Shown piece by piece: positions 6,119 to 60,613 of a stretch of DNA of 64,000 nucleotides. The notes below the pieces were generated by a model. That model was not told the DNA's origin, did not search any database, and saw only the letters and a program-made list of their open reading frames with translations. Made by a program: the position numbers and the translations under genes. Source of the stretch: Minisyncoccia bacterium (lineage in GTDB: Bacteria > Patescibacteriota > Minisyncoccia > UBA6257 > 2-01-FULL-56-20); the NCBI GenBank assembly GCA_049997875.1, contig JBEKRC010000001.1, positions 14,775 through 78,774 of the forward strand. Direction: 5' to 3'. How positions within the stretch are numbered: position 1 is the stretch's first letter; every line of letters starts with the position of its first letter.

Positions 6119-7505
6119 GCGTCGTGGGCTGCGCGCGGCCCTTCAATTTCCCCATCGCCTTGCCGATCAGAAACTGCAGACTGGCGGTCTTGCCCTTTTT
6201 ATAGTCGGCAACGGCGGTTGGATTTTCCGCAACGACCGCGCGCACGACCGCCGCTATCTCGCCCTCATCAGAGACCACGCCAATGCCCTCGCTTGCGGCG
6301 ATCTCCTCCGGATCATCGCCGGTCGCAAACATTTTCGCGAGCATATCCTTCGCCTGGCGACTTGTTATTTTCTTTTCTTCAATGAGCGCCGCGAGGTGCG
6401 CGAGGTGCTCCGGTGCCACTTTCAATTCCGAGAATGCCACATTATCCTCGTTCATCAAACCGCGCAAGTCGCTCGTAAGATAATTATAGAGCGTCGCAAC
6501 GGCGGTGGCGGACAAACGTTCACCCGGCAACTGCTCGCGAAGCTCCGACGCCGCTTCTTCAAAATAATTTGCGGCGAAAAGGTCAGAGACCAAAATTTCC
6601 ACCTGCGGCGCAGCGAGGCCGTATTCATGCGCGAATCGCACTCGCTTTTGCGCGGGAAGTTCGGGCAGCGTCTCGCGCAACCTTTCGGGCTCAAACGCAG
6701 CCGTCTCAAACGGCGGGATATCCGGCTCGGGGAAATAGCGGTAATCGTGCGCCTCCTCTTTTGATCGCTGTGACGCGGTTTTTTGTTTCGTATCGTCCCA
6801 CCCGCGCGTTTCTTGCGTCAACTTCTCCCCGCGCACGAGCACCTCTTCCTGCCGTGCGAGTTCATATTCCACCGCATCATGCACCGCCTTGAACGAATTA
6901 ATGTTTTTGAGCTCCACTTTCGTGCCCATATCCAGGCTCACGTTCACCTCAATGCGCATCTCCCCTTTTTCCATGTCGGCGTCCGAAACGCCAAGATAGC
7001 GCACTATGAGCTGAAGCTCACGCGCGAAAGCAGCCGTGTCGTCCGCACTATGCAAGTCCGGCTCCGTCACAAGTTCCATCAAAGGCACGCCGGAACGGTT
7101 GTAATCCACGAGCGAGGCACCCTCCGCGTGCACGAGCGTCCCCGTGTCTTCTTCCAGGTGGACCCGCCGGATGCGGACGCCCATCAATTCGCCGCCGTGG
7201 ATGAGCGGCCTGTCGTACTGCGAAATCTGATAACCCTTCGGGAGGTCGGGATAGAAATAATTTTTGCGGTCAAACTTGGTAACCGCGTTCACGTGTCCGC
7301 CAAGCGCGAGTCCGGTTTTCAGCACGTACGCTATCGCTTGTTTGTTTGGAACAGGCAATGTCCCCGGATGCCCGAGGCACACCGGGCAGACGTTCGTGTT
7401 TGGACGCTTTTCCCCGGGATTATTCAGTGAATCGCAGAACATCTTCGTCCGCGTTTTCAATTCCGCGTGGATCTCCAAGCCAATGGTCGGTTGATGCCCT
7501 GCCAT
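6081..7505 (-). CDS. gatB: Asp-tRNA(Asn)/Glu-tRNA(Gln) amidotransferase subunit B
   Basis: PTIGLEIHAEL, CPVCLGHPGTLP and a GatB/YqeY C-terminal domain. The ATG at 7503-7505 is preferred over the TTG at 7523. The 3' end overlaps miaA convergently. Confidence 0.9.
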   Translation of the reverse strand: MAGHQPTIGLEIHAELKTRTKMFCDSLNNPGEKRPNTNVCPVCLGHPGTLPVPNKQAIAYVLKTGLALGGHVNAVTKFDRKNYFYPDLPKGYQISQYDRPLIHGGELMGVRIRRVHLEEDTGTLVHAEGASLVDYNRSGVPLMELVTEPDLHSADDTAAFARELQLIVRYLGVSDADMEKGEMRIEVNVSLDMGTKVELKNINSFKAVHDAVEYELARQEEVLVRGEKLTQETRGWDDTKQKTASQRSKEEAHDYRYFPEPDIPPFETAAFEPERLRETLPELPAQKRVRFAHEYGLAAPQVEILVSDLFAANYFEEAASELREQLPGERLSATAVATLYNYLTSDLRGLMNEDNVAFSELKVAPEHLAHLAALIEEKKITSRQAKDMLAKMFATGDDPEEIAASEGIGVVSDEGEIAAVVRAVVAENPTAVADYKKGKTASLQFLIGKAMGKLKGRAQPTTLKELFERHLNGA

Positions 7506-8769: not shown

Positions 8770-9548
<779 letters not shown>

Positions 9549-9598
9549 CTACCACACGTGCCATTAAAAACATCTTAAAGAAAACTTGACAGCGGCCT

Positions 9599-9662
9599 GG
9601 GTGCGCTACTCGTGTTTGGGCGACTTCGTCTTCGCAGGAACCCAAACACGAGTAGCGCACCC
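9599..9662 (-). repeat. perfect 22-bp-stem hairpin with a 20-nt loop (element H1) between rpsF and ssb
   Basis: 9599-9620 is the exact reverse complement of 9641-9662. The loop cgacttcgtcttcgcaggaa matches the loop of the hairpin at 42633-42700 in 19 of 20 positions, in the same orientation relative to transcription. Confidence 0.6.
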
Positions 9663-10149: not shown

Positions 10150-16881
<6,732 letters not shown>

Positions 16882-16928
16882 TACACACAAAAACGGTGCC
16901 ACTCTTTATTCCAAGAGGTCCCGTTGGC

Positions 16929-19793: not shown

Positions 19794-20582
19794 TCAGCGA
19801 TTGTCTCGCTCCTTTCCCTTTTCAAGCTCCATCAGTTTCATGATTTCATCAACTCCTTCTTCAACCGTCTTTTCAATTTGATGAATCTCTGGATAATAAT
19901 CACCCCCAAATTCAACCCCTGGTTTTTTTTCTAGCTGCTGACCCATTTGCAATTTCAACTCGATATTAGAAATCTGTAATTGAATCTTTTGATCAATCTT
20001 ATTAAGGCGCTCAAACTCTTTCTCACGTTCTGCGGCTACCGCTTTTTCCTCTCTGCGTTCGACATATCTTTTTGAAACAGCACCTATCAATCCAGAAATA
20101 CTCATAAGCAAGGCCAGGGTGAGCGAAAGACGCATACGTCTTTCTTTTTTATACCTCCCGTGTTCGGTCTCAGCTCTTTTTATAAATCCCAGAAGATCCT
20201 TATTGATCTGAACTTTTTCTTCGGTGATATCTGGTGTTTCCCACCTTTTCCCTATCTCCGAGTTTATAACCTGGATGATGGTTTGCCGACGCTCTTCGGT
20301 CTCGCTGGGATCGATCAAAAGATCCAACGCATATTGGCGCTCCTTGACCCGCCTCCCATGGTGAAAATAGCCAGCCTCAATGGGCTCTATGCTGAACCCA
20401 CTAACAAATCCTTTTGAATGCAACTCGTCAGCAATTTTTTCCAACGCCTTCTGGTCCGTAAAAACCGTCCGAATCCTTACGGCTTCCACCATTTCAATTT
20501 CTTTCTTTTCCGGCGTGCCCATGTTCTCCGGCTCGCCCGGAACGCGTTCAGGCAGTTCCTCTTTGCTCATTGACTCCAACAT
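19794..20582 (-). CDS. hypothetical protein with a central TM segment and a coiled-coil C-terminus
   Basis: The 262-aa product is Glu/Lys-rich with no recognisable domain. Confidence 0.45.
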   Translation of the reverse strand: MLESMSKEELPERVPGEPENMGTPEKKEIEMVEAVRIRTVFTDQKALEKIADELHSKGFVSGFSIEPIEAGYFHHGRRVKERQYALDLLIDPSETEERRQTIIQVINSEIGKRWETPDITEEKVQINKDLLGFIKRAETEHGRYKKERRMRLSLTLALLMSISGLIGAVSKRYVERREEKAVAAEREKEFERLNKIDQKIQLQISNIELKLQMGQQLEKKPGVEFGGDYYPEIHQIEKTVEEGVDEIMKLMELEKGKERDNR

Positions 20583-20631: not shown

Positions 20632-20752
20632 GATGTCGGCACATCCTACTTTCCCCGCAGGCGAACCCGCAAGTATCATGGGATCGGGGCGCTTTCACTT
20701 CTCTGTTCGGAATGGGAAGAGGTGGGACACGCCCGGATAGAGCACCGACATC
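20632..20752 (-). rRNA. rrf: 5S rRNA
   Basis: The reverse complement reads GAUGUCGGUGCUC...CCCACCUCUUCCCAUUCCGAACAGAGAAGUGAAAGCGCC...GUGCCGACAUC. Helix I terminal pairing is present. Confidence 0.85.
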
Positions 20753-21057
20753 AAAAGGTCGTTTTGCATGATGAGCGTGCATTTTGCAGACAGTACTCAG
20801 AAGGGCCGTCTGCAAAACGCACACTCACCATGTTCAACTCCATTTGTAGAAAATGGAACGAGCGCTTGCAAAATAGCTTTTGGACGAGAGCCCTTCCGAG
20901 TACTCTCGGACAAAAGCTATTTTGCAAGCACGAAGTCAGCATTGGGATGGTTGGCGGGATTATTAGTACTCCTCGGCTGAAACCCTCGCGGGCCTTACAC
21001 CTGGAGCCTATCAACGTGGTAGTCTTCCACGAAATCACACACACCTAATCTTGGGGT

Positions 21058-21231: not shown

Positions 21232-21892
21232 GCAATATATTACTTCACGTCATTACTGACGGTTTGGACTATACCACTATCTCGATCCGCATCGAGATAA
21301 TCGACGTTTTATGGAATTTTTCTTCCATCCAATCTTTTAGATTGAGTCTCTACGGGGTCAATGTATATAATTTTCGCTTCTTTGAATGATTTAATTCTCT
21401 GAAACGATCTACGGTCTTCATCAGCAGGTGAAAATCGTTTCGATCTTTCACCTCAGCTTTCTTATCTAAGATTTCCAGCATAAGCATTGCCTGTTCCTTT
21501 TTCAAAATGAGATATGGCTGGACCATTACGAGGAATGCGCGGATAGCGTCTTCTCTCGCGATGGTATATTCAACCATGCCGTCATTTCTCTCTCGGATAT
21601 ATCCGAGATCAATAAGAGAACAAATCTGCTCGAACTTTTTCAGTTCTTTCCAGAAATCCTGCAATATATGCTTTTTGTGCTGACGAAAGACTTTTACACA
21701 TGACTTCCCTCGGTATTATCCTATAACCATTCAGCGCATCAAAATACTTTTTAATATATTTTTAATGGTCATTATGGTATGCACGTCCACAGGTCATGGA
21801 CGATAGGACTTCACCGATATGAGTCAATTTTTTTCAATCCGCATTACTGCGAAAAGCCGCCGTGTTCGATCATCGTAAAGGGTTCTTTCGTT
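21232..21892 (-). mobile_element. group I intron in 23S rRNA at the E. coli L2593 (I-CreI/I-CeuI) site
   Basis: The exon reads ...GGGUUCAGACCGU | intron | CGUGAGACAGGUCGG. The 5' exon ends in U and the intron ends in G. Confidence 0.7.
21350..21664 (-). pseudogene. N-terminally truncated LAGLIDADG homing endonuclease remnant inside the L2593 intron
   Basis: The 104-aa frame matches the C-terminal half of single-motif LAGLIDADG enzymes. It has no ATG and no LAGLIDADG motif, and an in-frame stop lies 17 codons upstream. Confidence 0.5.
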
Positions 21893-22547
21893 GACGGTCT
21901 GAACCCAGCTCACGTGGGCTTTTAAATGGCGAACAGCCATACGCTTGGGAGCTTCTTCACCCCCGCGCTAGCCCGAGCCGACATCGAGGTGCCGAGCGAA
22001 GTCGTCGATAGGAACTCTCGGACTTCACCAGCCTGTTATCCCCGGAGTAGCTTTTATCCGGTGTCTCCGGCCTTTCTATCAAGAATGCCGTCGGGTCACT
22101 AACTTCTGCTTTCGCACCTGCTCGTCTTGTAGGACTCGCAGTCAAGCCGGCTTTTGCGTTTGCACGTCCTGCCCGATTTCCATCCGGGCTAAGCCGACCT
22201 TAATAAACTCCTCCGTTACTCTTTTGGAGGAAAACGCCCCATTTAAACTGCCTACCAAGCACTGTCTCGGTCGGGTTTATGCTTGCGCACTCCCCAATCG
22301 GTTAGACGTTAAAGTTTTAAAGATGGCTGTTTCATTGTCGGATCCACGATGCCCGAGAGCACCGCTTCAAATCCTCACCACTACGCTACGCAGTAAAACT
22401 CTAAAATCAATACCAAGCTGCAGTAAAGCTTCCGGGGTCTTTTCGTCCCGCTGCAGGTATCCCGCGTCTTCACGGGAATCGCATTTTCACCGAGCTTGCC
22501 TCTGAGACAGTTCTCCAGTCGTTACGCCTTTCGTGCGCTTCGGAACT

Positions 22548-22746
22548 TCATTCCTGTTGTCTTCGATTTCTCGAAGTGTCGGACTATATATTCATCCCGC
22601 CCATGCGGGAGCTTGCGTGTAGTCTCTACGGAGTCCCTGATCGAATCGGGGTTCCCTCGGTATTGCCCTATTTGCCTGTGCAAACGTAGGTTTCACCGAT
22701 ACAGCAAGTGCTTCAAGATCAATCACTTGATCAAGGGGCAAGTTTC
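22548..22746 (-). mobile_element. roughly 200-nt ORF-less insertion in 23S rRNA at about L1951 (possible small or degenerate group I intron)
   Basis: The exon reads ...UUUUCGGGU | about 197 nt | AAGUUCCGAAGCGCACGAA. The insertion ends in G. Confidence 0.45.
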
Positions 22747-22769
22747 CTTACCCGAAAAGGAATTGCGCT

Positions 22770-23517
22770 CAATTGTGTTAATCTGCATGTCGCCATGCAG
22801 TTCGGACCATATCTTCCCGCGATGCGGGTTCGGCATATGGTCTCTGAGGATTCTAGAAACGGATTTTCTTTCGATTCGTTTTTGAAGCAATGGTAAGAAT
22901 TTTATTCCATCCATCTTCTTTGAGATGGAGTTTTTTACTCATCATTTCCACTACCTTTTTGAACAAAACAAAATCGTTTTGCTTATAGGTCTTTAATGGA
23001 AATTGATCAAAAAATGGAATAATTATTTCTTTCAATTCCGAAATTGATCTCACGCAGTATCGATAAAGATGTTCGTTGTGATTATCGCATCGTTTATTAA
23101 GGACGATACTGCCACACCCGAAGAACTCTTTTATCGCTACGAGGGCGTTTAAACTTTTTGCGCCTTGCGTGATAACAAATTCCGGGAATAGTTGCTTTCC
23201 GAATCGAGTGGTTGAATTTTTGATCACCGAAATAACGAAGCTACCTTCGCCGTCGGTAAATCCAGATATCCAACTTGCCGTTTTTAGTCTTTCCTGCTGA
23301 TTGTCTGCACCGATCATATTTTCACTATACTCATGAAACATTAAATTTCTCTAAAGTTTTCATGAAATACAGTAATGTCGGATGCTCAGATGTTCCAGCA
23401 TATAGCCGATTAAAGGATATTCTGCAGGGCAGAATAGGCTGCGCTTTTATTTTGTTGTACCAAAGCCATAATCGTTCCAATCCTCGCCAGCACCTTTAAT
23501 AAATAAAGACGCGGGCG
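22770..23517 (-). mobile_element. group I intron in 23S rRNA at about L1931
   Basis: The exon reads ...AACUAUAAUCGUUCUAAGGU | intron | AGCGCAAUUCCUUUUCGGGUAAG. The intron ends in G and contains an intact homing endonuclease ORF. Confidence 0.7.
22853..23341 (-). CDS. LAGLIDADG homing endonuclease (intron-encoded)
   Basis: The 162-aa product has an N-terminal WISGFTDGEGSF (LAGLIDADG-type) motif, is AT-rich, and is on the same strand as the rRNA. Confidence 0.85.
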   Translation of the reverse strand: MFHEYSENMIGADNQQERLKTASWISGFTDGEGSFVISVIKNSTTRFGKQLFPEFVITQGAKSLNALVAIKEFFGCGSIVLNKRCDNHNEHLYRYCVRSISELKEIIIPFFDQFPLKTYKQNDFVLFKKVVEMMSKKLHLKEDGWNKILTIASKTNRKKIRF

Positions 23518-25132
23518 ACCTTAGAACGATTATAGTTATCGCTGACATTGACGAGGGCTTGAGTCAGTGAGCAATACATATTACTACATATCACCCCCAA
23601 CCTTGACCTTCTCGCATCGGTCAGGCGTCACCCCCTATACATCCTCTTGCGAGTTAGCAGGGAGCTGTGTTTTTGGTAAACAGTCGCCAGAGAAACTTTC
23701 GCTGCGGCTCCATCGAGACTGAAAGAAGGAAGGGAGGGGATCCTCCCTGAAGAATAATTTGGCCGGGCGGTGCACGACGCAGTAAAAACAAGGAGAGCCT
23801 AATCTCTTCATTCCTACTTGCAGTGAAACCGCGCACCACCCGATATGCCGTTTCCTTCTTTCAGCCCCGATAGAGCAGGCCATATTGCTAACGTACGGCC
23901 GCTTTTTTGCCGAGTTCCTTAGAGGCAAATCACTCGTTCCCCTTGGGCTTCTCGCCCTATCCACCTGTGTCGGTTTACGGTACGGATCCTTTGCAACGTA
24001 ACCGCCGCGCTTTTCTCGGAAGGCTCTTCGTGCGTGTTGATGAGGTAAATTCCTCACCTTCCGCCGATCCTTGTTGAACTTCGGACCAGCGATACCAAAC
24101 CAATAAGGCATACGCACCTATTTCCTTCGCACACGACGGATAATCACAAAGGAGGGCTGGAATATTAACCAGCATTCCATCAGCTGCGGCTTTCGCCATC
24201 GCCTTAGGATCGCCTAACCCGTGGTTGATTGCCAGTGCCACGGAAACCTTGGATTTTCGGGGTTCCAATTTCTCATTGGGATTGTGGTTACTCATACCAA
24301 CATTTTCTCTTCGTATCGCTCCACTCGCCCTCACGGGTCGGGCTTCACTGCAATACGAATGCTCTCCTACCACTCACCGATCCCGAAGGATCGGCGAATC
24401 CGTATCTTCGGTACCATGCTTAGCCCCGGTACATTTTCGGCGCCACCACCCGTCGAATAGTGAGTTGTTACACACTCTTTAAAGGATGGCTACCTCTAAG
24501 CCAACCTCCTATCTGTCTATGGGTGATGACTACCTTTAACACTTAGCATGGATTTGGGGACCTTAGATAACGGTCTGGGCTCTTCCCCTCGCGACCACGG
24601 AGCTTAGCCCCCGCAGTCTGACTAGTGCGGGATCCGCCTGCGGTATTCGGAGTTTGATTGATCGATCGGCCTTTCGGCCTTTACCGATCATCCAGTGCTC
24701 TACCCCCGCAGGATTTTCCGCACCGCTAGTCCTAAAACTATTTCGGAGAGAACCAGCTATTACCGAATTCGATTAGCTTTTCACTCCTTACCTCAGCTCA
24801 TCCGAGAGTTTTGAACAACTCACCAGTTCGGGCCTCCCCTTCGATTTCTCGAAGGTTCACCCTGGCCAAGGCAAGCTCATCCGGCTTCGGGTCTACCTTG
24901 TGCTGCGATCCCACTCAATAAATTGAGTGGGATGTACGCCCTATTAAGACTCGCTTTCGCTATGCCTGCACGCTATGCGCGTTTAGACAAGCAACACAAG
25001 ATAAGTCGTTGGCTCATTCTTCAATAGGCACATTGTCGCACCGCGCGGACACATTGCTGCGTCCACGCTTAGTGCTTCAATTCCTTGTAGACAAATGGTT
25101 TCAGGTTCTATTTCAACGGCCTCACCGGCCTG

Positions 25133-25169
<37 letters not shown>

Positions 25170-25859
25170 ATCTAGAAAAGTATTTAGCCTTACCTGATAG
25201 TACAGGCAAATTCCTTCGGGACTTATTTACCCCGAAGTACTCAAGTTGAAAAACTAAGGAGATCGTAAGTTTTCGCCTACGGGACTATCACCCTCTTTGG
25301 CCCCGCCTTTCCAGGCGGCTTCGGCTAACCAACGATTTTTTTACTCCTCCTTATTTCACCAATCGCCGAATCCCCGGGACGTGCCCGGAAACTCGGCGAC
25401 CAGTAAAACAGCGTCTCTCTCTTATAACCCCAAGGTCCGATCTTGCGATCAGAACCTTAGTTTAGGCTCTTCCCTGTTCTCTCGCCGATACTAAGGGAAT
25501 AAACTGATTTGTTCTATGTTCCTTTGGCTACTGAAATGTTTTACTTCGCCAAGTACGCGAATCGGCTTGCGCCGAAACAATTACGGTTTACGTAATTAGG
25601 TTTCCCCATTCGGACATCCCCGGATCACAGGTTGCTACGCACCTCCCCGAGGCGTATCGTCGCTACGCCACGTCCTTCATCGCCTTTTCTAGTCAAGGCA
25701 TCCACCATTCGCCCTTATTGAGATCCGTCTTGCGACGGAAATGCCAACCATCCCAATGCTGACTTTTACTTATTGAGACTGAGAGAAGGAGCGGAAAAGT
25801 TTGGTGATGGTTACCATTCCTCCGCTACTTTCAATATGTTGTTCTCCTGAGCCTGAGTT

Positions 25860-26454: not shown

Positions 26455-26612
26455 AAAGAATGTAAGCAGGGGTTTACAGCGGACCGCGCAGCCCCGATTG
26501 GCTAGGTCCGAAATGCCATTGCGTGCATTTCGGCAATCGGGGCGAGCGACAAGAAAAAATTCTCGCAGGAAGAATTTTATTCTGGCGCTGTAAACCCCTG
26601 CTTACATTCTTT
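26455..26612. repeat. MITE-like palindromic element with perfect 27-bp terminal inverted repeats abutting the tRNA-Pro 3' end
   Basis: 26455-26481 (aaagaatgtaagcaggggtttacagcg) is the exact reverse complement of 26586-26612. The 104-nt interior has nested hairpins (gccccgattg/caatcggggc, ccgaaatgc/gcatttcgg) and contains tcgcaggaa, which is shared with hairpin H1. Confidence 0.6.
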
Positions 26613-26613
26613 G

Positions 26614-26684
26614 TCGGGCCGCTGGGAATCGAACCCAGACCGCACGCACCCGAAGCGTGTATACTGCCACTATACGACGGCCCG
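26614..26684 (-). tRNA. tRNA-Pro (CGG)
   Basis: CGGGCCG...CACGCUUCGGGUGCGUG...CUGGGUUCGAUUCCCAG...CGGCCCGA. The anticodon loop is UUCGGGU. Confidence 0.85.
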
Positions 26685-26725: not shown

Positions 26726-27121
26726 CTACCCCCTCCGCCGCCTCCGGTGAAGCTGTTTTGATTTTTGCGTGATGGCAAAAACGGAAAGCACCATGATGTA
26801 ATCCGCAACGACCTCGGAATCAAGGACGTAGCCCCTGCCGCCGAAGAAAAGGGCGACAATGGCAAGCACAAAAATGAGCACGGTCCATGCAATGATAAAA
26901 AGTTCGCCAGGGTGGCGGCTGTCGTGGATGTCATACCAACGGTCAAACTCCTTCGTGCCCGCGTAGAGGGTAAGGACGCCGGCGTACACCGCGCTCAAAG
27001 GAAGAATAAACGGCTCGTACCGGTTGAATAAGAAAAAGTTCGCGACCACGAAGACCATAAAAACGACGGTCCATGACGTGCAAAGGGTGCTCCATAGCTG
27101 CTCGCCGCTGAAAGCTTTCAT
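26726..27121 (-). CDS. small polytopic membrane protein, hypothetical
   Basis: The 131-aa product has three or four predicted TM helices. Confidence 0.45.
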   Translation of the reverse strand: MKAFSGEQLWSTLCTSWTVVFMVFVVANFFLFNRYEPFILPLSAVYAGVLTLYAGTKEFDRWYDIHDSRHPGELFIIAWTVLIFVLAIVALFFGGRGYVLDSEVVADYIMVLSVFAITQKSKQLHRRRRRG

Positions 27122-28578
27122 TACTTCACAAAATACTTCTTTTTTATCTCTTCTTCCAGTCCTTCCTCAAATTCGTCTTTTGTAGTGCGGGCTTTTTCGG
27201 CAAGCTTTTTCAACGCCGCGTCGGAGAGTTTCCCCAACTCCGTGACGCGCACTGTCAAGTTTTCTTTAACATTCTTTTTAGGATCATCCAGCACCTCTTC
27301 AAGCAATATGGCAAGCACCCACCCCACGCGCTGTCCGGGCGGGATTTTTAAAATTTCCATCACATCGTCGCCGTTCACTTTGAGCATCTTCGGCGAGACC
27401 GGATCGTTCTTCACTTTCTCAATCATGAACATCAGGTGGCGGTTCTTATATGGCGTTGCTTTCGGCGCACCGGAGCCGATACGGTCTGCCTCGCGCACTT
27501 TGAAAAGATCCGGCACGGTTTCCGGTCCCACGCGCGCGAGGAACCGCCGCACGCCGCGCTCGGAGACCTCGCCCACGTTGTAATAGAACATATGGTAGCG
27601 CACGAGATGGGTCACTTGTTCTATGAATTCCTTTGAGAACCGCAAGCGATCCAGTGCTTTTGTTGTCATCTTCGCACTGATGAATTCGTGCTGATAGAAC
27701 GTGGAGTTGCGGCCCTCGCCCTGTTTCGCACGCGGCTTCCCGACATCATGCAAGAGCGCCGCCATGCGGATCACGAGCGGATAATCCTGCTTCGCAGCAT
27801 AGTCCAGCGACCGAACGCTGTGCTCAAACACGGTATAAATATGATGGAGATTCTGCCCGACGCCCAGTCCCTCGCGCAGTTCCGGCAAAACGTACTGCAG
27901 CAAACCAAGTTCTTCCAAAAGAATCATCCCCTTCGCCGCCTGCGGTGTCTCCAATATCTTTACAAGCTCGTCACGGACGCGCTCTTTTGCGATCATTTCA
28001 AGCTCGTGCGAAAGCTTTTCTATCGCGCGGCGCGTGTCCATTTCAATCTCAAAATCCAATTCCACCGCAAACCGCACCGCCCGCATAAGGCGCAATGCGT
28101 CTTCGCTGAACCGTTCCGCGGGACTCCCCACGGTGCGAATCACCTTTTTCTCCAAATCACCCTTACCCCCAAACGGATCATACACTTCCCCTTTCAGGTT
28201 CATCGCGAGCGCGTTCACCGTAAAATCCCGGCGGGACAAATCTTCCTGAATCGTTTTGGCGAATTTCACTTCGTCCGGATGCCGCTTATCCGTATACCTC
28301 CCTTCAATCCGGTACGTGGTCACTTCAATCACTTTCAGCTTCGGATCCTCCGATTCGGTTTTCACTCCCACCGTGCCGAACGCATTTTCATACACGCTCT
28401 CCGGAAAAAATTTCTGGATATCCTCTGGCAACGCGCTCGTCGCAATGTCCCAATCTTTTGGCTCCCGGCCCAAAAGCATGTCCCGCACGCAACCGCCCAC
28501 CAAATACGCTTCAAATCCCGCCTTTGCGAGCGCCAAGGCGACTTCGGAAACTTCCTTTGGTACGAGAAGTTTTGCCAT
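27121..28578 (-). CDS. cca: CCA-adding enzyme (tRNA nucleotidyltransferase with HD domain)
   Basis: GGCVRD nucleotidyltransferase motif, LLHDVGKP HD motif, and a strong SD site (GTTAAGGAG) before the ATG at 28578. Confidence 0.85.
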   Translation of the reverse strand: MAKLLVPKEVSEVALALAKAGFEAYLVGGCVRDMLLGREPKDWDIATSALPEDIQKFFPESVYENAFGTVGVKTESEDPKLKVIEVTTYRIEGRYTDKRHPDEVKFAKTIQEDLSRRDFTVNALAMNLKGEVYDPFGGKGDLEKKVIRTVGSPAERFSEDALRLMRAVRFAVELDFEIEMDTRRAIEKLSHELEMIAKERVRDELVKILETPQAAKGMILLEELGLLQYVLPELREGLGVGQNLHHIYTVFEHSVRSLDYAAKQDYPLVIRMAALLHDVGKPRAKQGEGRNSTFYQHEFISAKMTTKALDRLRFSKEFIEQVTHLVRYHMFYYNVGEVSERGVRRFLARVGPETVPDLFKVREADRIGSGAPKATPYKNRHLMFMIEKVKNDPVSPKMLKVNGDDVMEILKIPPGQRVGWVLAILLEEVLDDPKKNVKENLTVRVTELGKLSDAALKKLAEKARTTKDEFEEGLEEEIKKKYFVK

Positions 28579-28600
28579 CTCCTTAACTATAACGGAATTA

Positions 28601-29737
28601 CTACCGCACCGTTCCGCCGAACTCCCCGGCAGTCTTTTTTTCAAGCGCGTGATGCATCACGTCCACCTCTGCGTTTGTAAGCGTCCGCTCGTTGCTCCGA
28701 TAGACCACGCGGAAGGTGTAGCTTGTTTTCCCCGCGCCGAACTTTTCCGGATTTTCATACTTATCAAGCAATGCAACCTCCTCCACAAGGTCGCCGCCGA
28801 TATCGCGGATCACGTCAAAATAATTGTTCGGCACAAAGTCCGCACCGACGACAAAAGAGATGTCGCGAGTGACAGGCGGGTACTTGCTTACTTCTTTATA
28901 AGCATTGCCTAAGCGGAGCTGGCGCGTCACGCGCGAATCCGCAGACCACAAAAGCCGGATGTCGGGAAGCTGCATGCTCAAGATTGCGAGCCGCTCCAGG
29001 CCAAAGCCGAACGCCCAACCGTTCCAGATGCGCGAATCAATACCGAAGTTATCCAAAACTTTTGATTGCACGACGCCGCTTCCCAAGACCTCCACCCAGC
29101 GCCCGCCTACTTCTATCACCATCTCCAAGCTCGGGTCCGTGTACGGGAACGTATCTTTATTGAAACGATACTTGATGCCCGGCCCGTAAATCGCCTGCGC
29201 GATTGTTACCAAAACGGCTTTCAGATCTTCCAAGCCGATTTCTTTTTCCTCCCGGCGGCAAAGATACCAACCATCCATCTGGTGGAATACGTTCATGTGC
29301 TCGCGGTCTATTTCATCCTTGCGGTACACCTTGCCATAGCACAGCGCGCCAACCGCTTTCCCCTGCCGTATTTTTTCTTTCACCGCAGAAAGGCCGAGCC
29401 AGTAGTACCACATGATCGTGGTGTGCGTGCGCAAAATGTAGTCGTCGTTCACGTAGTACGTATCGGAGCGGCTGCGGGCGGGATGGTCGGGCGGGAAATT
29501 AAAAAGGTCAAAACTCTCCCGCGCCGGCACGATCTCCGGCACCTGCACAACGTCAAACGCCTTGAAATCCGGGAGCGCCACGATGCGCCGCACAATCTCA
29601 TAAATCGGGCTCCCCTTCGTACGCGAAAGGTCCGGCATCCGCATGAACCGCAGCATGCGCGCCGCTTCCGCGTCGCTCCGTTTTTCTATCTCCGCGCGGA
29701 GCCGCTTTTCCTCCGGTGCCGCGATAACAAGTTCCAT
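28601..29737 (-). CDS. phenylalanyl-tRNA synthetase, monomeric mitochondrial-type (PheS-like catalytic core plus C-terminal FDX-ACB anticodon-binding domain)
   Basis: FNFPPDHPARSRSDTYY (motif 2), GWAFGFGLERLAIL (motif 3), then SKYPPVTRDISFVV...FDVIRDIGGDLVEEVALLDKY...KTSYTFRVVYRSNERTLTNAEV, which is collinear with the human FARS2 C-terminus. There is no bacterial N-terminal coiled coil. Confidence 0.8.
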   Translation of the reverse strand: MELVIAAPEEKRLRAEIEKRSDAEAARMLRFMRMPDLSRTKGSPIYEIVRRIVALPDFKAFDVVQVPEIVPARESFDLFNFPPDHPARSRSDTYYVNDDYILRTHTTIMWYYWLGLSAVKEKIRQGKAVGALCYGKVYRKDEIDREHMNVFHQMDGWYLCRREEKEIGLEDLKAVLVTIAQAIYGPGIKYRFNKDTFPYTDPSLEMVIEVGGRWVEVLGSGVVQSKVLDNFGIDSRIWNGWAFGFGLERLAILSMQLPDIRLLWSADSRVTRQLRLGNAYKEVSKYPPVTRDISFVVGADFVPNNYFDVIRDIGGDLVEEVALLDKYENPEKFGAGKTSYTFRVVYRSNERTLTNAEVDVMHHALEKKTAGEFGGTVR

Positions 29738-41266: not shown

Positions 41267-41968
41267 ATGAGTTTTGACTTTCTGGTTTCTCTTTTTTTTC
41301 CACGCCGCTGCCTTGCCTGCGGGAAAACCCTGCGGGCGGGCGCGCTCTGTCCCGCGTGCCGCGGGAAGATAACGACCGCGCGCACGTTCTTCTGCGGCCG
41401 ATGCGGCTCGCCGCTTCCCGGTCCGAAGCTCCATGACCCCCGCCGCACCTGCCATCCTGACTTCCCCTACGTGCTCGGCGCCGCGGGAAGCTACAAGGAC
41501 GAAACCCTAAGGGCGCTCGTCCACGCCCTCAAGTTCCGCGGCGTGAGAGCGGCGGCGGAACCGCTCGCATCCATCATGGCGGAGTACGCCCTGCCATTCA
41601 AAACGGATCTGTTGCGTTACGTCGCGATGCCAATCCCGCTTTCGCGTGAGCGCTTCCGCATCCGCGGTTTCAATCAATCGGAACGCATTGCAACGCGATT
41701 CGCGGAATATTTCGGACTTCCCGTGGCAACGAAGTGCCTTGTGCGGATCAAGCACGCAAAACCACAGAGTGAAACGACGAGCGTGGCGGAGCGGAGAGAG
41801 AACATCCGCGGATGTTTTGCGGTTGCCGATGCCGCCGCCGCGTGCGGGAAAAACGTTCTCCTTGTTGACGACGTGAGCACCTCCGGCGCGACGTTTCTTG
41901 AAGCTGCGCGCGCGCTCAAGGACGCCCACGCGGCGGACATTATCGCGCTTGCGGCAGCCAAGGCATAG
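41267..41968 (+). CDS. comF: competence protein ComF (phosphoribosyltransferase domain)
   Basis: An N-terminal Cys4 zinc finger (CLACG...CPACRG...CGRCG) and a C-terminal PRTase motif (VLLVDDVSTSGATF). Confidence 0.8.
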   Translation: MSFDFLVSLFFPRRCLACGKTLRAGALCPACRGKITTARTFFCGRCGSPLPGPKLHDPRRTCHPDFPYVLGAAGSYKDETLRALVHALKFRGVRAAAEPLASIMAEYALPFKTDLLRYVAMPIPLSRERFRIRGFNQSERIATRFAEYFGLPVATKCLVRIKHAKPQSETTSVAERRENIRGCFAVADAAAACGKNVLLVDDVSTSGATFLEAARALKDAHAADIIALAAAKA

Positions 41969-42148
41969 AACCCATCTCCAAAATAGGCGCACGAGGATCA
42001 TGAACCATTTTCGAGCGAGAAACGTGAATCCCGACAAAGGAATACCTCGTGGCATTGCGAGGAGGGATTCGCGTTTCGCAGCCGAAAATGGCCATAAGAG
42101 TCGTGTGGCCTATTTTGGAGATGGGTTCTCACGTGGTAAAATAGCCAC

Positions 42149-42616
42149 ATGGCATCATTTGAAATGAAATGGGAAGCGCCGGAGTACGAGTACCGCGAGA
42201 AAGGCGTGTCGTGGTACTGGATTTCCATCATCATCGCGGCCGTCATCATCGCATTCTCCGTCTGGGAAAGGAACTTCCTCTTCGGACTTTTCGTCGTCAT
42301 CGCGGAGATGCTTTTCATCGTATGGGGCAACCGCGCGCCGCGCACGGTGCGCTTCGCGCTCACCGAAAACGGCGTAGCGATAGAAGGAGGAAAATCCCAT
42401 TCGCTCAAGGACTTTGAGAGCGTGAGTGCGACGGCAGCGAACGACGGCTGGGTTGAACTTACATTTACCTTCCGCGCAAAACTCAAAACGCCTTTAAAGA
42501 TTTTCCTCCCGGAGGCGCGGCTCACCGAATTCCGCAACAACATGAAGCTGATCCTCAGGGAAGTGCCCCACGAACCGACGCTGCTTGACTCCATTGAAAA
42601 GCTCGTCGGGTTTTAG
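42149..42616 (+). CDS. hypothetical membrane protein
   Basis: The 155-aa product has two TM helices followed by a soluble domain. Confidence 0.45.
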   Translation: MASFEMKWEAPEYEYREKGVSWYWISIIIAAVIIAFSVWERNFLFGLFVVIAEMLFIVWGNRAPRTVRFALTENGVAIEGGKSHSLKDFESVSATAANDGWVELTFTFRAKLKTPLKIFLPEARLTEFRNNMKLILREVPHEPTLLDSIEKLVGF

Positions 42617-42632
42617 TAAGGTGAAAGCGTCG

Positions 42633-42700
42633 GCATGCGCTCCCGCTGTGTGCGCCCTCCTGCGCAGACGAAGTCGGTCGCACACAGCGGGAGCGCATGC
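42633..42700 (+). repeat. perfect 22-bp-stem hairpin with a 24-nt loop (element H2), 3 nt upstream of tRNA-Arg
   Basis: 42633-42654 is the exact reverse complement of 42679-42700. The loop ccctcctgcgcagacgaagtcggt is near-identical to the reverse complement of the H1 loop. Confidence 0.6.
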
Positions 42701-42703
42701 TAC

Positions 42704-42775
42704 GCCCTCGTCGTTCAACGGACAGGACGCAAGATTGCGGATCTTGTAATAGAGGTTCGATTCCTCTCGAGGGCA
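42704..42775 (+). tRNA. tRNA-Arg (GCG)
   Basis: GCCCUCG/CGAGGGC acceptor, GUUC/GGAC D-stem, anticodon arm CAAGA-UUGCGGA-UCUUG, T-arm AGAGG-UUCGAUU-CCUCU and discriminator A. Confidence 0.8.
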
Positions 42776-42857
42776 CCTTGCACAAAACGGCAGAAAACGG
42801 TTAAATTAGGGCATAGGCGAAAAACGCCAAAGGTCTAACTAATTCTTTAACAAAAAT

Positions 42858-60009: not shown

Positions 60010-60169
60010 GATATCTTAAGGCTATTCGAAAGTCGTCCACTCCCATGCGCAAAAAATCATTAAAGAAATATTAAACGGTGTTTGACTTTCCATGCGGTGG
60101 CATTACCATAAAACCATGCCTGCGGGGCGGCAGCCCCTAACCGGCCTTCGGGCTGGTAGCAGGCATGTT

Positions 60170-60198
60170 AAAAAACCTCTCCGCGTGAGAGGTTTTTT
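60170..60198. terminator. bidirectional rho-independent terminator (aaaaaacctctc-cgcgt-gagaggtttttt)
   Basis: An 8-bp stem flanked by A5 and T6 between convergent genes (59551-60009 on plus, 60197-60613 on minus). Confidence 0.7.
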
Positions 60199-60613
60199 AA
60201 TAAATACTGAAAAAATGCTTTTGTCCCTTTTTGAGTTGCCTCACTAATAAAGTAACCGAGTGATTTGTACGTTGACTTTTTATCGCCCAGAAGTCAGCTT
60301 TGGTAGTTTTTCCAGCTTTCTTGCCGTGCCACTTACTCACCATGAATGTTTCTTTCTCCCTATGGATGAAGGTGGCTTTTGGATCAGCGACTATGTTTTT
60401 CGCATGCACTAAAAGGGCAAAGCGTCTCATTTGCTCGTCTTCTCGACGGCGCTTCCCTCTTTTTCTCATAAGATGGCGGAATCCGATGCTATTAAAAATA
60501 ACGAAGTCCTTAAGTGTGGGGCACCAAACCCGCCCCAGCTTTAAGTAGAGCAGCTTTGCATTCTGCAGTGCTTCTTCGCAGCTGGCGCTGTCGCGAGAAA
60601 CCGGATATTCCAT
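60197..60613 (-). CDS. hypothetical protein (138 aa)
   Basis: Basic and AT-rich, with no recognisable domain. Confidence 0.4.
   Translation of the reverse strand: MEYPVSRDSASCEEALQNAKLLYLKLGRVWCPTLKDFVIFNSIGFRHLMRKRGKRRREDEQMRRFALLVHAKNIVADPKATFIHREKETFMVSKWHGKKAGKTTKADFWAIKSQRTNHSVTLLVRQLKKGQKHFFSIY

Follow-up and report, generated by a model that had tools for sequence, protein, structure and literature searches.

Introduction

Small intergenic hairpins of several kinds have been described in bacteria and elsewhere. Those of the REP/REPIN class lie after genes with which they are co-transcribed, are proposed to protect messenger RNA (mRNA) 3' ends and are patchily distributed among relatives; their stem is conserved and carries a tag, the loop is variable, and tens to hundreds of copies are mobilised by a RAYT. 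TIGR stem-loop arrays occur in the candidate phyla radiation (CPR) as tandem units next to a Tas gene, with variable palindromic stems and with loops in which two variable spacers of 8-12 nucleotides (nt) are flanked by box C/D motifs (PMC12045711). This study concerns a hairpin, H2, that lies immediately upstream of a tRNA-Arg gene of a Minisyncoccia bacterium (assembly GCA_049997875.1, contig JBEKRC010000001.1), and the family of conserved-tip hairpins to which it belongs. The stretch analysed, hereafter the window, comprises 64,000 nt of that contig (positions 14,775 to 78,774, forward strand), and window positions are counted from its first letter; labels such as L099 denote the loci with which it was compared.

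The H2 family resembles the TIGR units in its variable yet palindromic stems, short conserved loop motifs and CPR hosts (PMC12045711). H2 is solitary, however, with a conserved loop of 18-24 nt and no Tas gene nearby. Compared with the REP/REPIN class, the tip rather than the stem is conserved, the stems of 18-27 base pairs (bp) are locus-specific, copies are few, and neither a tag nor a RAYT was seen. By functional analogy, protein-recognised hairpins that define post-transcriptional regulons (the iron-responsive element, lambda boxB and the MS2 operator) likewise present a structured conserved apical loop on a free, compensating stem, with copies dispersed over the untranslated regions of several genes; the H2 family differs in its much longer, perfect stems, in having some antisense copies and in its rapid turnover between close relatives, and its binding protein is putative.

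Two further systems come close. In murine gammaherpesvirus 68, hairpin RNAs are released from tRNA-pre-miRNA units by tRNA processing. A hairpin of pre-miRNA size (~22 bp) also abuts a tRNA here, and RNase P or RNase Z would set one of its ends, but the H2 family is bacterial, is found on either flank and in either orientation, and has only generic, sub-threshold matches to microRNA families in Rfam. The organelle palindromes of Volvox and other green algae, as well as the double-hairpin and GC-cluster elements of fungal mitochondria, are short intergenic hairpin insertions, often by tRNA genes, in small genomes; they are high in copy number and conserved over the whole element, whereas the H2 family is low-copy and conserved in the tip alone.

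H2 belongs to a family of hairpins with a conserved tip

H2 spans 68 nt (42633-42700), and its arms form 22 of 22 Watson-Crick pairs. These coordinates and the perfect 22-bp stem are exactly those given by a previous sequence-only reading of the window, which also placed the hairpin correctly, 16 nt after the stop codon of the gene at 42149-42616 and 3 nt before tRNA-Arg. The minimum free energy (MFE) of the fold is -61 kcal/mol (z = -9.1), and none of 200 shuffled sequences folded equally well; by simple arithmetic, a perfect 22-bp inverted repeat with a loop of at most 40 nt is expected by chance ~1e-7 times per 64 kb. As RNA, the tip parses into CC UC CU G CG CAGA CG A AG UC GG plus U.

A second hairpin of the window, H1 (9599-9662, minus strand), has the same loop core, TCCTGCGMAGACGAAGTCG. 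The pattern TCCTGCGNAGACGAAGTCG occurs in the window only at 42658-42676 on the plus strand and at 9621-9639 on the minus strand, with 0.07 matches expected, in agreement with the sequence-only statement that the two hairpins have the same loop. The H1 motif is on the minus strand, however, as are rpsF and ssb, so that its plus-strand loop is the reverse complement of that of H2, and both motifs are sense to their flanking genes. The two solitary copies are 33 kb apart. Their stems, previously described as unrelated, are alike: the arms are identical at 14 of 23 positions in register (permutation p = 0.008; gapped score p = 0.0025), which suggests that H2 is a paralogue of H1 that arose by duplication.

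Exact-tip scans were made of 185,579 genomes (one per species) and 241 million metagenome records. Most matches were chance occurrences in GC-rich genomes, and six had a hairpin context (L011, L026, L019, L044, L073 and L089). A covariance model, R1, was built from seven copies and then searched for divergent members, which yielded two copies flanking tRNA-Arg in L106, one after an HU gene in L109 and one between rpsF and ssb in L115. Members were defined by a stem of at least 18 bp, the tip UC-NN-R-CG-RAGA-CG-A-NN-UC and an R1 score of at least 40 bits; H2 has the stem and the tip and scores 79 bits (E = 2e-18). The family has 12 copies at ~9 loci, all in Minisyncoccia/Paceibacteria (CPR) contigs. 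Peat and groundwater samples, such as JGI 3300039307 and ERZ25039512, were among the sources of these contigs.

The elements are 65-72 nt long, with stems of 18-27 bp that are mostly perfect and specific in sequence to each locus. The tip, by comparison, is shared, the core of H2 being identical or nearly so in 8 other copies. It is 18-20 nt long, is closed by C-G pairs and contains an internal mini-helix (p1-p1' and p2-p2'). In the three tip variants, a C-G pair at p1-p1' gives way to G·U and a U-A pair at p2-p2' to C-G; read from the complementary strand, each G·U would be an A·C mismatch. This covariation is that of a small apical helix, predicted for one defined strand. Tips tend to be alike within a contig or genome: both window copies and the two of OY970382.1 are of type A, and both copies on L106 are of type B. 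L106 and L115 come from the same sample, although a common genome is not established, and the L115 tip (type B') is identical to that of the downstream L106 copy. Uniform tips on locus-specific arms could reflect either co-evolution with a trans-acting factor or a tip-copying mechanism. Copy number is low: the window holds two copies in 64 kb, and the complete 888-kb genome OY970382.1 holds two exact tips.

Full-text literature searching found no description of such elements in CPR. The data support a new family, for which structure, membership and, as described below, dispensability for the tRNA are established; constraint on the tip and on stem pairing has the support of modest statistics.

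The copy between rpsF and ssb

Hairpins with homologous arms occupy the rpsF-ssb site in three genomes, namely the window, L019 and L115. L019 and the window share 97% amino-acid identity in rpoBC and 80% identity at 4-fold sites. In the L019 spacer the left arm matches that of H1 at 19 of 22 positions, 19 nt of the right arm have been lost, and the tip is identical at 19 of 19 positions, for which a neutral identity of 80% would give a probability of 0.8^19 = 0.014. L115, a distant relative of the window (4-fold identity 0.46), has a 20-bp perfect hairpin at this site; its left arm is identical to that of L019 at 18 of 24 positions, and its right arm bears the matching changes. The two H1-site copies that retain both arms, those of the window and L115, are thus fully paired despite their arm differences. 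H1 has been inherited vertically at rpsF-ssb with its stem changes compensated, which points to constraint on the structure.

Several other features mark this site. In L113 (10442-10615; core of 111 nt) and L114 (10442-10662), larger branched palindromes lie between rpsF and ssb instead of H1; that of L114 is the longer through a further nested insertion, and L114, like L113, is as close to the window as L019 is. A highly conserved intergenic block, TGTCAAGTTTTCTTTAAGATGTTTTTAATGG…TGGTAGAATA, is present at 9540-9598 (minus strand) of the window and in L019, L113, L114 and L115. The block stops 6 nt short of the ssb ATG and resembles an extended -10 promoter, from which a leaderless or near-leaderless ssb mRNA would arise. 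A similar TGGTAAAAT lies 7 nt ahead of the start of the 155-amino-acid (aa) gene in L109.

The tRNA-Arg locus in relatives

The order ComF-like gene, 155-aa gene, tRNA-Arg was compared across relatives, and the spacer between the stop codon and the tRNA was read in each (Table 1). The tRNA-Arg does not need the hairpin, because in relatives the same locus is empty, remnant-bearing, refilled or reversed. The hairpin is absent from L099-L102, leaves only remnants in L104, L105, L108 and L111, is replaced in L103 and is reversed in L106, so that the processing or termination-antitermination element proposed in the sequence-only reading is not upheld as one on which tRNA-Arg depends. That reading had itself named absence from relatives with the same locus as what would argue against processing; the same gene order without H2 was indeed found, and it counts against an obligatory tRNA element.

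In L106, a second copy follows 1 nt after the 3' end of the same tRNA-Arg, the two copies being inverted and less than 150 nt apart. Orthology of H2 with the upstream L106 copy was considered and rejected as not significant (outer arm 9/12; whole-arm p = 0.29). In L104 and L105 the 11-nt spacer remnant looks like the outermost 9 nt of the left arm of H2. The site may have held either one ancient hairpin or two separate insertions. Taken together, the spacers mark it as a hot spot where hairpins have been gained, inverted, eroded and lost.

The membrane protein encoded upstream of H2 could not be assigned to a Pfam family; it has 201 homologues in Minisyncoccia/Paceibacterota metagenome-assembled genomes, and one of these Minisyncoccia proteins (L098), encoded on a 308-kb contig from a peat metagenome, is 100% identical to it. 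Together with the long 23S rRNA and the rpoB-rpoC fusion described below, this match places the window in the CPR/Patescibacteria. The promoter-like site that overlaps the end of its gene has 8/12 matches, which is under the threshold of the promoter tool, and no sigma-70 consensus reached that threshold at either H2 or H1. In the empty-site relative L099, the orthologous TTGAAA-17-TATCGT was called and ends 10 nt before the tRNA. A transcript from the window site would start just before H2, and H2 would then form the 5' leader of tRNA-Arg.

Table 1 Features of the H2 and H1 loci, stop-to-tRNA spacers in relatives, and distances of family copies from tRNA ends
Feature	Position or locus	Strand	Length or distance	Details
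H2 left arm	42633..42654	+	22 nt	GCATGCGCTCCCGCTGTGTGCG; perfect complement of 42679-42700
H2 tip/loop	42655..42678	+	24 nt	CCCTCCTGCGCAGACGAAGTCGGT; conserved core 42658-42676
H2 right arm	42679..42700	+	22 nt	Pairs with 42633-42654
Linker from H2 to tRNA 5' end	42701..42703	+	3 nt	TAC; counterparts ATACC in L106, TAT/GAC in L104/L105
tRNA-Arg(GCG)	42704..42777	+		ARAGORN; Rfam tRNA 61 bits; CCA not encoded
Open reading frame upstream of H2, membrane protein	42149..42616	+	155 aa	Stop TAG 42614-42616, 16 nt before H2
Putative promoter-like site	42594..42622	+		TTGAAA-17 nt-TAAGGT; TTGAAA 42594-42599; -10 TAAGGT 42617-42622, directly after stop
H1, family copy, probable paralogue of H2	9599..9662	-		22-bp perfect stem plus U·G closing pair; tip TCCTGCGAAGACGAAGTCG; 4 nt after rpsF stop, upstream of ssb
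Stop-to-tRNA-Arg spacer	Window / L098		87 nt	Hairpin H2
Stop-to-tRNA-Arg spacer	L099-L102		16 nt	Empty; same 16 nt precede H2 in window
Stop-to-tRNA-Arg spacer	L104, L105 (90% and 87% protein identity)		27 nt	16 nt plus 11-mer resembling outer edge of H2 stem
Stop-to-tRNA-Arg spacer	L111		29 nt	CCCTTTCGTAT, 11/11 match to L106 hairpin left arm
Stop-to-tRNA-Arg spacer	L108		47 nt	Collapsed palindrome GTGCGC-T-GCGCAC
Stop-to-tRNA-Arg spacer	L103		103 nt	Unrelated double hairpin
Stop-to-tRNA-Arg spacer	L106		90 nt	24-bp perfect hairpin, divergent family tip, opposite orientation
Copy at tRNA-Arg 5'	Window H2, L106 upstream		3-6 nt	
Copy at tRNA-Arg 3'	L106 downstream		1 nt	
Copy at tRNA-Val 5'	L026		about 5 nt	
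Copy at tRNA-Ser 5'	L011		about 28 nt	
Copy at tRNA-Leu 5'	L044		67 nt	
Copy at truncated tRNA 3'	L089		about 11 nt	

Bacteria usually carry an ACG (inosine) anticodon in this CGN-decoding arginine tRNA. The GCG anticodon of the tRNA at 42704-42777 is conserved across the clade. None of the tRNA genes of the window encodes CCA, and a gene for a CCA-adding enzyme is present at 27121-28644. In L099-L103, a large serine recombinase gene lies directly 3' of the same tRNA-Arg (for example L102:663-2231 and L103:10443-12110) and is absent from the window; in L099-L102 it is followed by ~9 kb of small hypothetical genes that include helix-turn-helix proteins, suggesting an integrated element that uses this tRNA region. 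L108 provides a further case in this clade of a long hairpin set close against a tRNA end: at 6549-6606, 6 nt after tRNA-Arg, a perfect stem of 19 bp bears an unrelated loop of 20 nt, TCGAGTTCAAGGCAGCTCTC.

Genomic placement of the family

Ten of the 12 copies begin 0-19 nt after an upstream stop codon, the genes concerned being rpsF (three copies), the 155-aa gene (two copies) and those for rplL, rplS, an S1-like protein, HU and a kinase-like protein. Six of eight assessable sites are at most 70 nt from a tRNA end, and both flanks and both orientations are represented among them (Table 1). Among assessable copies from the unbiased scans, 4/5 are near a tRNA (p ~7e-4, if ~11% of intergenic DNA lies that close, which is a rough estimate from ~20 tRNAs and an assumed intergenic fraction of 12%). 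The suggestion of an insertion that targets tRNA flanks therefore stands as a link at the family level, whereas a plain mobile insertion would be an incomplete description, because H1 is vertically inherited with compensated stem changes and the tip covaries.

The motif is sense to local transcription in nine copies. In L026 the stop codon TAG runs directly into TATAAT, the same arrangement of stop and -10 as at H2. Hairpins H1, L109 and L044 are placed upstream of the promoter-like site of the next gene (TGGTAGAAT, TGGTAAAAT and TTGTTT-16-TATAAT, respectively), and the L089 copy lies between a convergent gene and a tRNA.

Comparison with known classes of elements

At gathering thresholds, Rfam 15 matched only rRNA and tRNAs in the whole window and left the hairpin unmatched; E-value scans around H2 and H1 returned only generic matches to microRNA precursors, at 15-31 bits against thresholds of 60-100. 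REP/REPIN elements have a conserved palindrome with a GTAG/CGTC tag and a high copy number. In the H2 family the arms differ between copies, copies are as few as given above, and H1 is untagged; the CGTC beside H2 belongs to the pre-existing 16-nt spacer that is also found in hairpin-less relatives. No RAYT (Y1 transposase) was found by Pfam among ~37 open reading frames of the window or in the Pfam tables of the fetched relatives' loci, and the same window frames and the L098 Pfam table contain no transposase, HUH, reverse transcriptase, recombinase or Nop/Tas domain. Miniature inverted-repeat transposable elements have terminal repeats and a target-site duplication. The arms here are locus-specific, and comparison of the H2 flanks (…GCGTCG before and TACGCC… after the hairpin) with the empty site of L099 revealed no direct repeat.

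Intrinsic terminators have a short G+C-rich stem, a loop of 3-8 nt and a T-run. A terminator scan found none at H2 or H1; there is no T-run, H2 being followed by TACGCCCTCG, although other parts of the window do contain canonical terminators with a hairpin and a T-run, such as that at 60168-60200. With respect to boxA/boxB antitermination of the rrn type, H2 has no boxA beside it; TTCTTTAACAA-like sites number 28 against 17±4 expected and none is linked to the rRNA operon; an exact boxA-like match occurs at 42843, 66 nt downstream of the tRNA-Arg 3' end. TIGR arrays differ in that H2-type copies are solitary, their loop of 18-24 nt is conserved between copies instead of carrying two variable spacers, and no Nop or IS110 domain was seen in the window frames scanned. 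Integron attC sites, with conserved outer R''/R' core sites around a variable centre, show the opposite pattern of conservation, since in the H2 family the centre is conserved and the outer arms vary; there are no arrays, and the scanned window frames include no integrase.

The exact H1 and H2 arms had no match in 2.9 million viral contigs and thus are unlike spacers in behaviour. Searches of viral contigs with the three tip variants yielded a single match, L107, which has no stem and is due to chance, and blastn against phage and plasmid records gave no match. GC skew is negative throughout the window, with no switch that would place a replication origin between H1 and H2. Comparison of the tip by eye with hammerhead, K-turn, sarcin-ricin, boxB and anti-Shine-Dalgarno motifs led to the rejection of all of them: invariant hammerhead positions are broken, tandem G·A is absent, and tip types B and C have lost CCUCCU.

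Other palindromes and genes of the window

As the sequence-only reading had noted, a 27-bp inverted repeat at 26455-26612 abuts a tRNA, which proved to be the 3' end of tRNA-Pro (26613-26684, minus strand), with no gap between them. In this element of 158 nt, outer arms that pair perfectly over 27 bp enclose two nested inner hairpins (MFE -91 kcal/mol, z = -11.7). One inner hairpin has the loop UUCCUGCGA, a 9-mer in common with the H1 tip; R1 gives no match. At 41967-42129, between the ComF-like and 155-aa genes and ~500 nt upstream of H2, lies a nested palindrome of 163 nt (MFE -96 kcal/mol, z = -12.5), whose outer arms are perfect over 22 bp and which holds an inner repeat of 28 nt. Since the corresponding spacer is only 33 nt in L099 and L100, it is another lineage-specific palindromic insertion.

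A second hairpin family has the same design, with locus-specific stems of 13-32 bp that are mostly perfect and a conserved 12-nt tip, TACTCRGAAGGG (possibly CUC-RGAA-GGG). Two of its copies, at 20779-20820 and 20864-20929, stand in opposite orientation in the 23S-5S spacer of the window just upstream of 5S rRNA, and two are in L111 (11742-11813 and 15442-15517), one of them with a 30-bp stem 5 nt after tRNA-Gly. The 23S rRNA (21811-25728, minus strand) is 3.9 kb long against a 2.9-kb model, with ~1 kb of insertions; one inverted repeat lies at 23707-23876. The 23S gene is ~1 kb from 5S rRNA (20633-20750), and the spacer has a stretch like an open reading frame at 21350-21664. In addition, rpoB and rpoC are fused into a single frame of 2250 aa at 10150-16902 (minus strand), a fusion kept in L019 (2251 aa) and L113 (2243 aa); the two are fragmented in L114 and L115, probably through long-read frameshift errors.

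Discussion

We tentatively favour, while giving it somewhat less than an even chance, the interpretation that H2 is a co-transcribed structured RNA hairpin, located in a tRNA leader or 3' untranslated region, whose tip is recognised by a putative trans-acting factor and which spreads only rarely to safe sites. An RNA-level role is favoured because the tip covariation is strand-specific, the tip is conserved in vertically inherited copies, and the copies lie at the ends of highly expressed units. H2 would be transcribed as the 3' untranslated region of the upstream gene, as the 5' leader of tRNA-Arg, or both, and would be separated from the tRNA by RNase P. It would function as RNA on the strand that carries the TCCTGCG...GTCG motif, where the very stable duplex may stop 3' exonucleases, be processed in a double-strand-specific manner at the termini of highly expressed units, or both, and the tip may serve as the docking site of the factor. 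Duplication of DNA would only rarely create new copies; those that survive would do so mainly just after stop codons and in trimmed tRNA leaders and trailers, and deletion would often remove copies again.

Several observations weigh against this interpretation. The tip covariation rests on only two or three independent variants. The stems are nearly free of G·U (~3 in ~260 pairs), as would suit a DNA palindrome or an RNase III-type requirement better than an ordinary RNA helix. H2 is absent from its closest relatives, L104 and L105, a sign of fast turnover, and L113, which with a 4-fold identity of 0.82 is as close to the window as L019, has a wholly different palindrome at the H1 site. Finally, three of the 12 copies (L011, L026 and the upstream copy of L106) are antisense with an intact tip, all of them 5' of a tRNA, which is awkward for a purely RNA-level, strand-specific role.

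A bolder version, to which we attach little probability, is that tRNA processing by RNase P and RNase Z, together with strong housekeeping promoters, yields free hairpin RNAs of ~70 nt that are bound by a lineage-specific protein co-evolving with the tip, the tip itself being copied between hairpins. Such copying between pre-existing hairpins would account for the uniform tips of a genome on stems that pass down with each locus. If true, it would amount to an undescribed small-RNA or ribonucleoprotein pathway, perhaps related to RNase III or to RNA handling of the Nop/Tas type.

The main rival to the RNA-hairpin interpretation, a strong one that we rate only a little lower, is a selfish or neutral palindromic DNA element that has no host function and accumulates in harmless sites. 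It would be copied by some DNA mechanism, possibly tip-seeded fold-back or template switching, with arm-to-arm correction keeping the arms perfect. Much at the tRNA-Arg site agrees with this, including the presence/absence polymorphism and the deletion remnants, as does the loss of the right arm in L019. The same applies to the random occurrence of both orientations near tRNAs, the paralogy of the H2 and H1 arms, the two inverted copies that flank one tRNA in L106, the other large palindromic insertions of the window (that at 41967-42129 being absent from relatives and that at 26455-26612 lying beside tRNA-Pro) and the near-lack of G·U in the stems. The likeness of the outer 9 nt of H2 to the L104/L105 spacer could likewise reflect an inverted copy of the local flank or a deletion at a GCT microhomology. 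The very low copy number is unlike such an element, however, and the unconserved arms leave no terminal recognition sequence, with no direct target duplication seen. Among the ~37 window frames scanned with Pfam and in the L098 table, no mobility gene is near the window copies; only L115 has an rve-family integrase of an insertion sequence, between ssb and rplK (11276-12193), and an RVT_1 reverse transcriptase gene at the locus end (20305-20423), ~0.8-10 kb from its copy. No similar sequence was found in phage, plasmid or viral collections, and the tip is conserved and covarying in old vertical copies, unlike selfish decay.

Termination or attenuation of the upstream unit by a factor-independent hairpin lacking a U-tract is unlikely. 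Most copies do follow a stop codon directly, three (H1, L109 and L044) precede the promoter-like site of the next gene, that of L089 separates a convergent gene from a tRNA, and a stem would act alike in both orientations. Nevertheless, neither H2 nor H1 is followed by a T-run, the terminator scan was null at both, and canonical terminators are present elsewhere in the window, while L073 already has one upstream of its copy. Termination at H2, L106 or L026 would abolish the tRNA, since in all three the hairpin separates it from a promoter-like -10, and a terminator would not need the conserved 19-nt tip.

A DNA-level site, at which a protein (a Rep protein, relaxase or HUH protein, or gyrase or a nucleoid protein as in REP/BIME) would bind or nick the loop of a cruciform or of a hairpin in single-stranded DNA, is similarly improbable. 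Orientation independent of transcription, perfect Watson-Crick stems and the association of copies with highly transcribed genes would all suit it, and rolling-circle origins are known to combine a conserved loop with variable stems, as here. On the other hand, tip pairing that relies on G·T on one strand only favours a single-stranded fold of one strand, and the L106 copies are on opposite strands within 150 nt, with no consistent replication-strand bias. The GC-skew profile of the window offers no origin or terminus to which the copies could be related, and no HUH or relaxase gene was seen in the window frames scanned with Pfam or in the L098 table.

A signal dedicated to tRNA-Arg maturation or antitermination, suggested by the 3-nt distance of H2 from the RNase P site and of other copies by 1-6 nt from tRNA ends, is largely refuted and very improbable, given the relatives in which the hairpin is missing or reduced to remnants, the copies that lie away from tRNAs (at rpsF-ssb and downstream of HU) and a boxA-like motif that was not taken as enriched and is unlinked to rRNA. 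Equally remote is a guide-RNA or short-hairpin-like small RNA, perhaps TIGR-related (such arrays with variable palindromic stems exist in CPR; PMC12045711), in which variable arms of 20-27 bp would act as guide, the conserved tip as handle and tRNA linkage as a source of RNase P/Z-defined ends, for copies are solitary, the conserved loop is too short for two 8-12 nt spacers, the window frames scanned include no Nop-domain Tas gene, the H1 and H2 arms are unmatched in viral contigs, and arms at the H1 site are inherited and drift in place with compensation, unlike acquired spacers.

In summary, a family of hairpins with a conserved tip on locus-specific stems is described in this study from CPR contigs. 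To our knowledge, hardly any non-coding elements are on record from the tiny genomes of CPR/Patescibacteria. This family and the second one of like design in the window show that the short stretches between their genes harbour structured, dynamic hairpins, with a concentration at genes for tRNA, rRNA and ribosomal proteins. Should the tip be a protein handle, the family would represent a new post-transcriptional regulon or small-RNA pathway in genetically intractable organisms. If the hairpins are selfish, they would be unusual mobile DNA in which only the centre of the palindrome is conserved, as might result from fold-back or loop copying. Whichever applies, the question can be tested on existing metagenomes and metatranscriptomes with the covariance model and with the series of empty, filled and remnant states at one locus.

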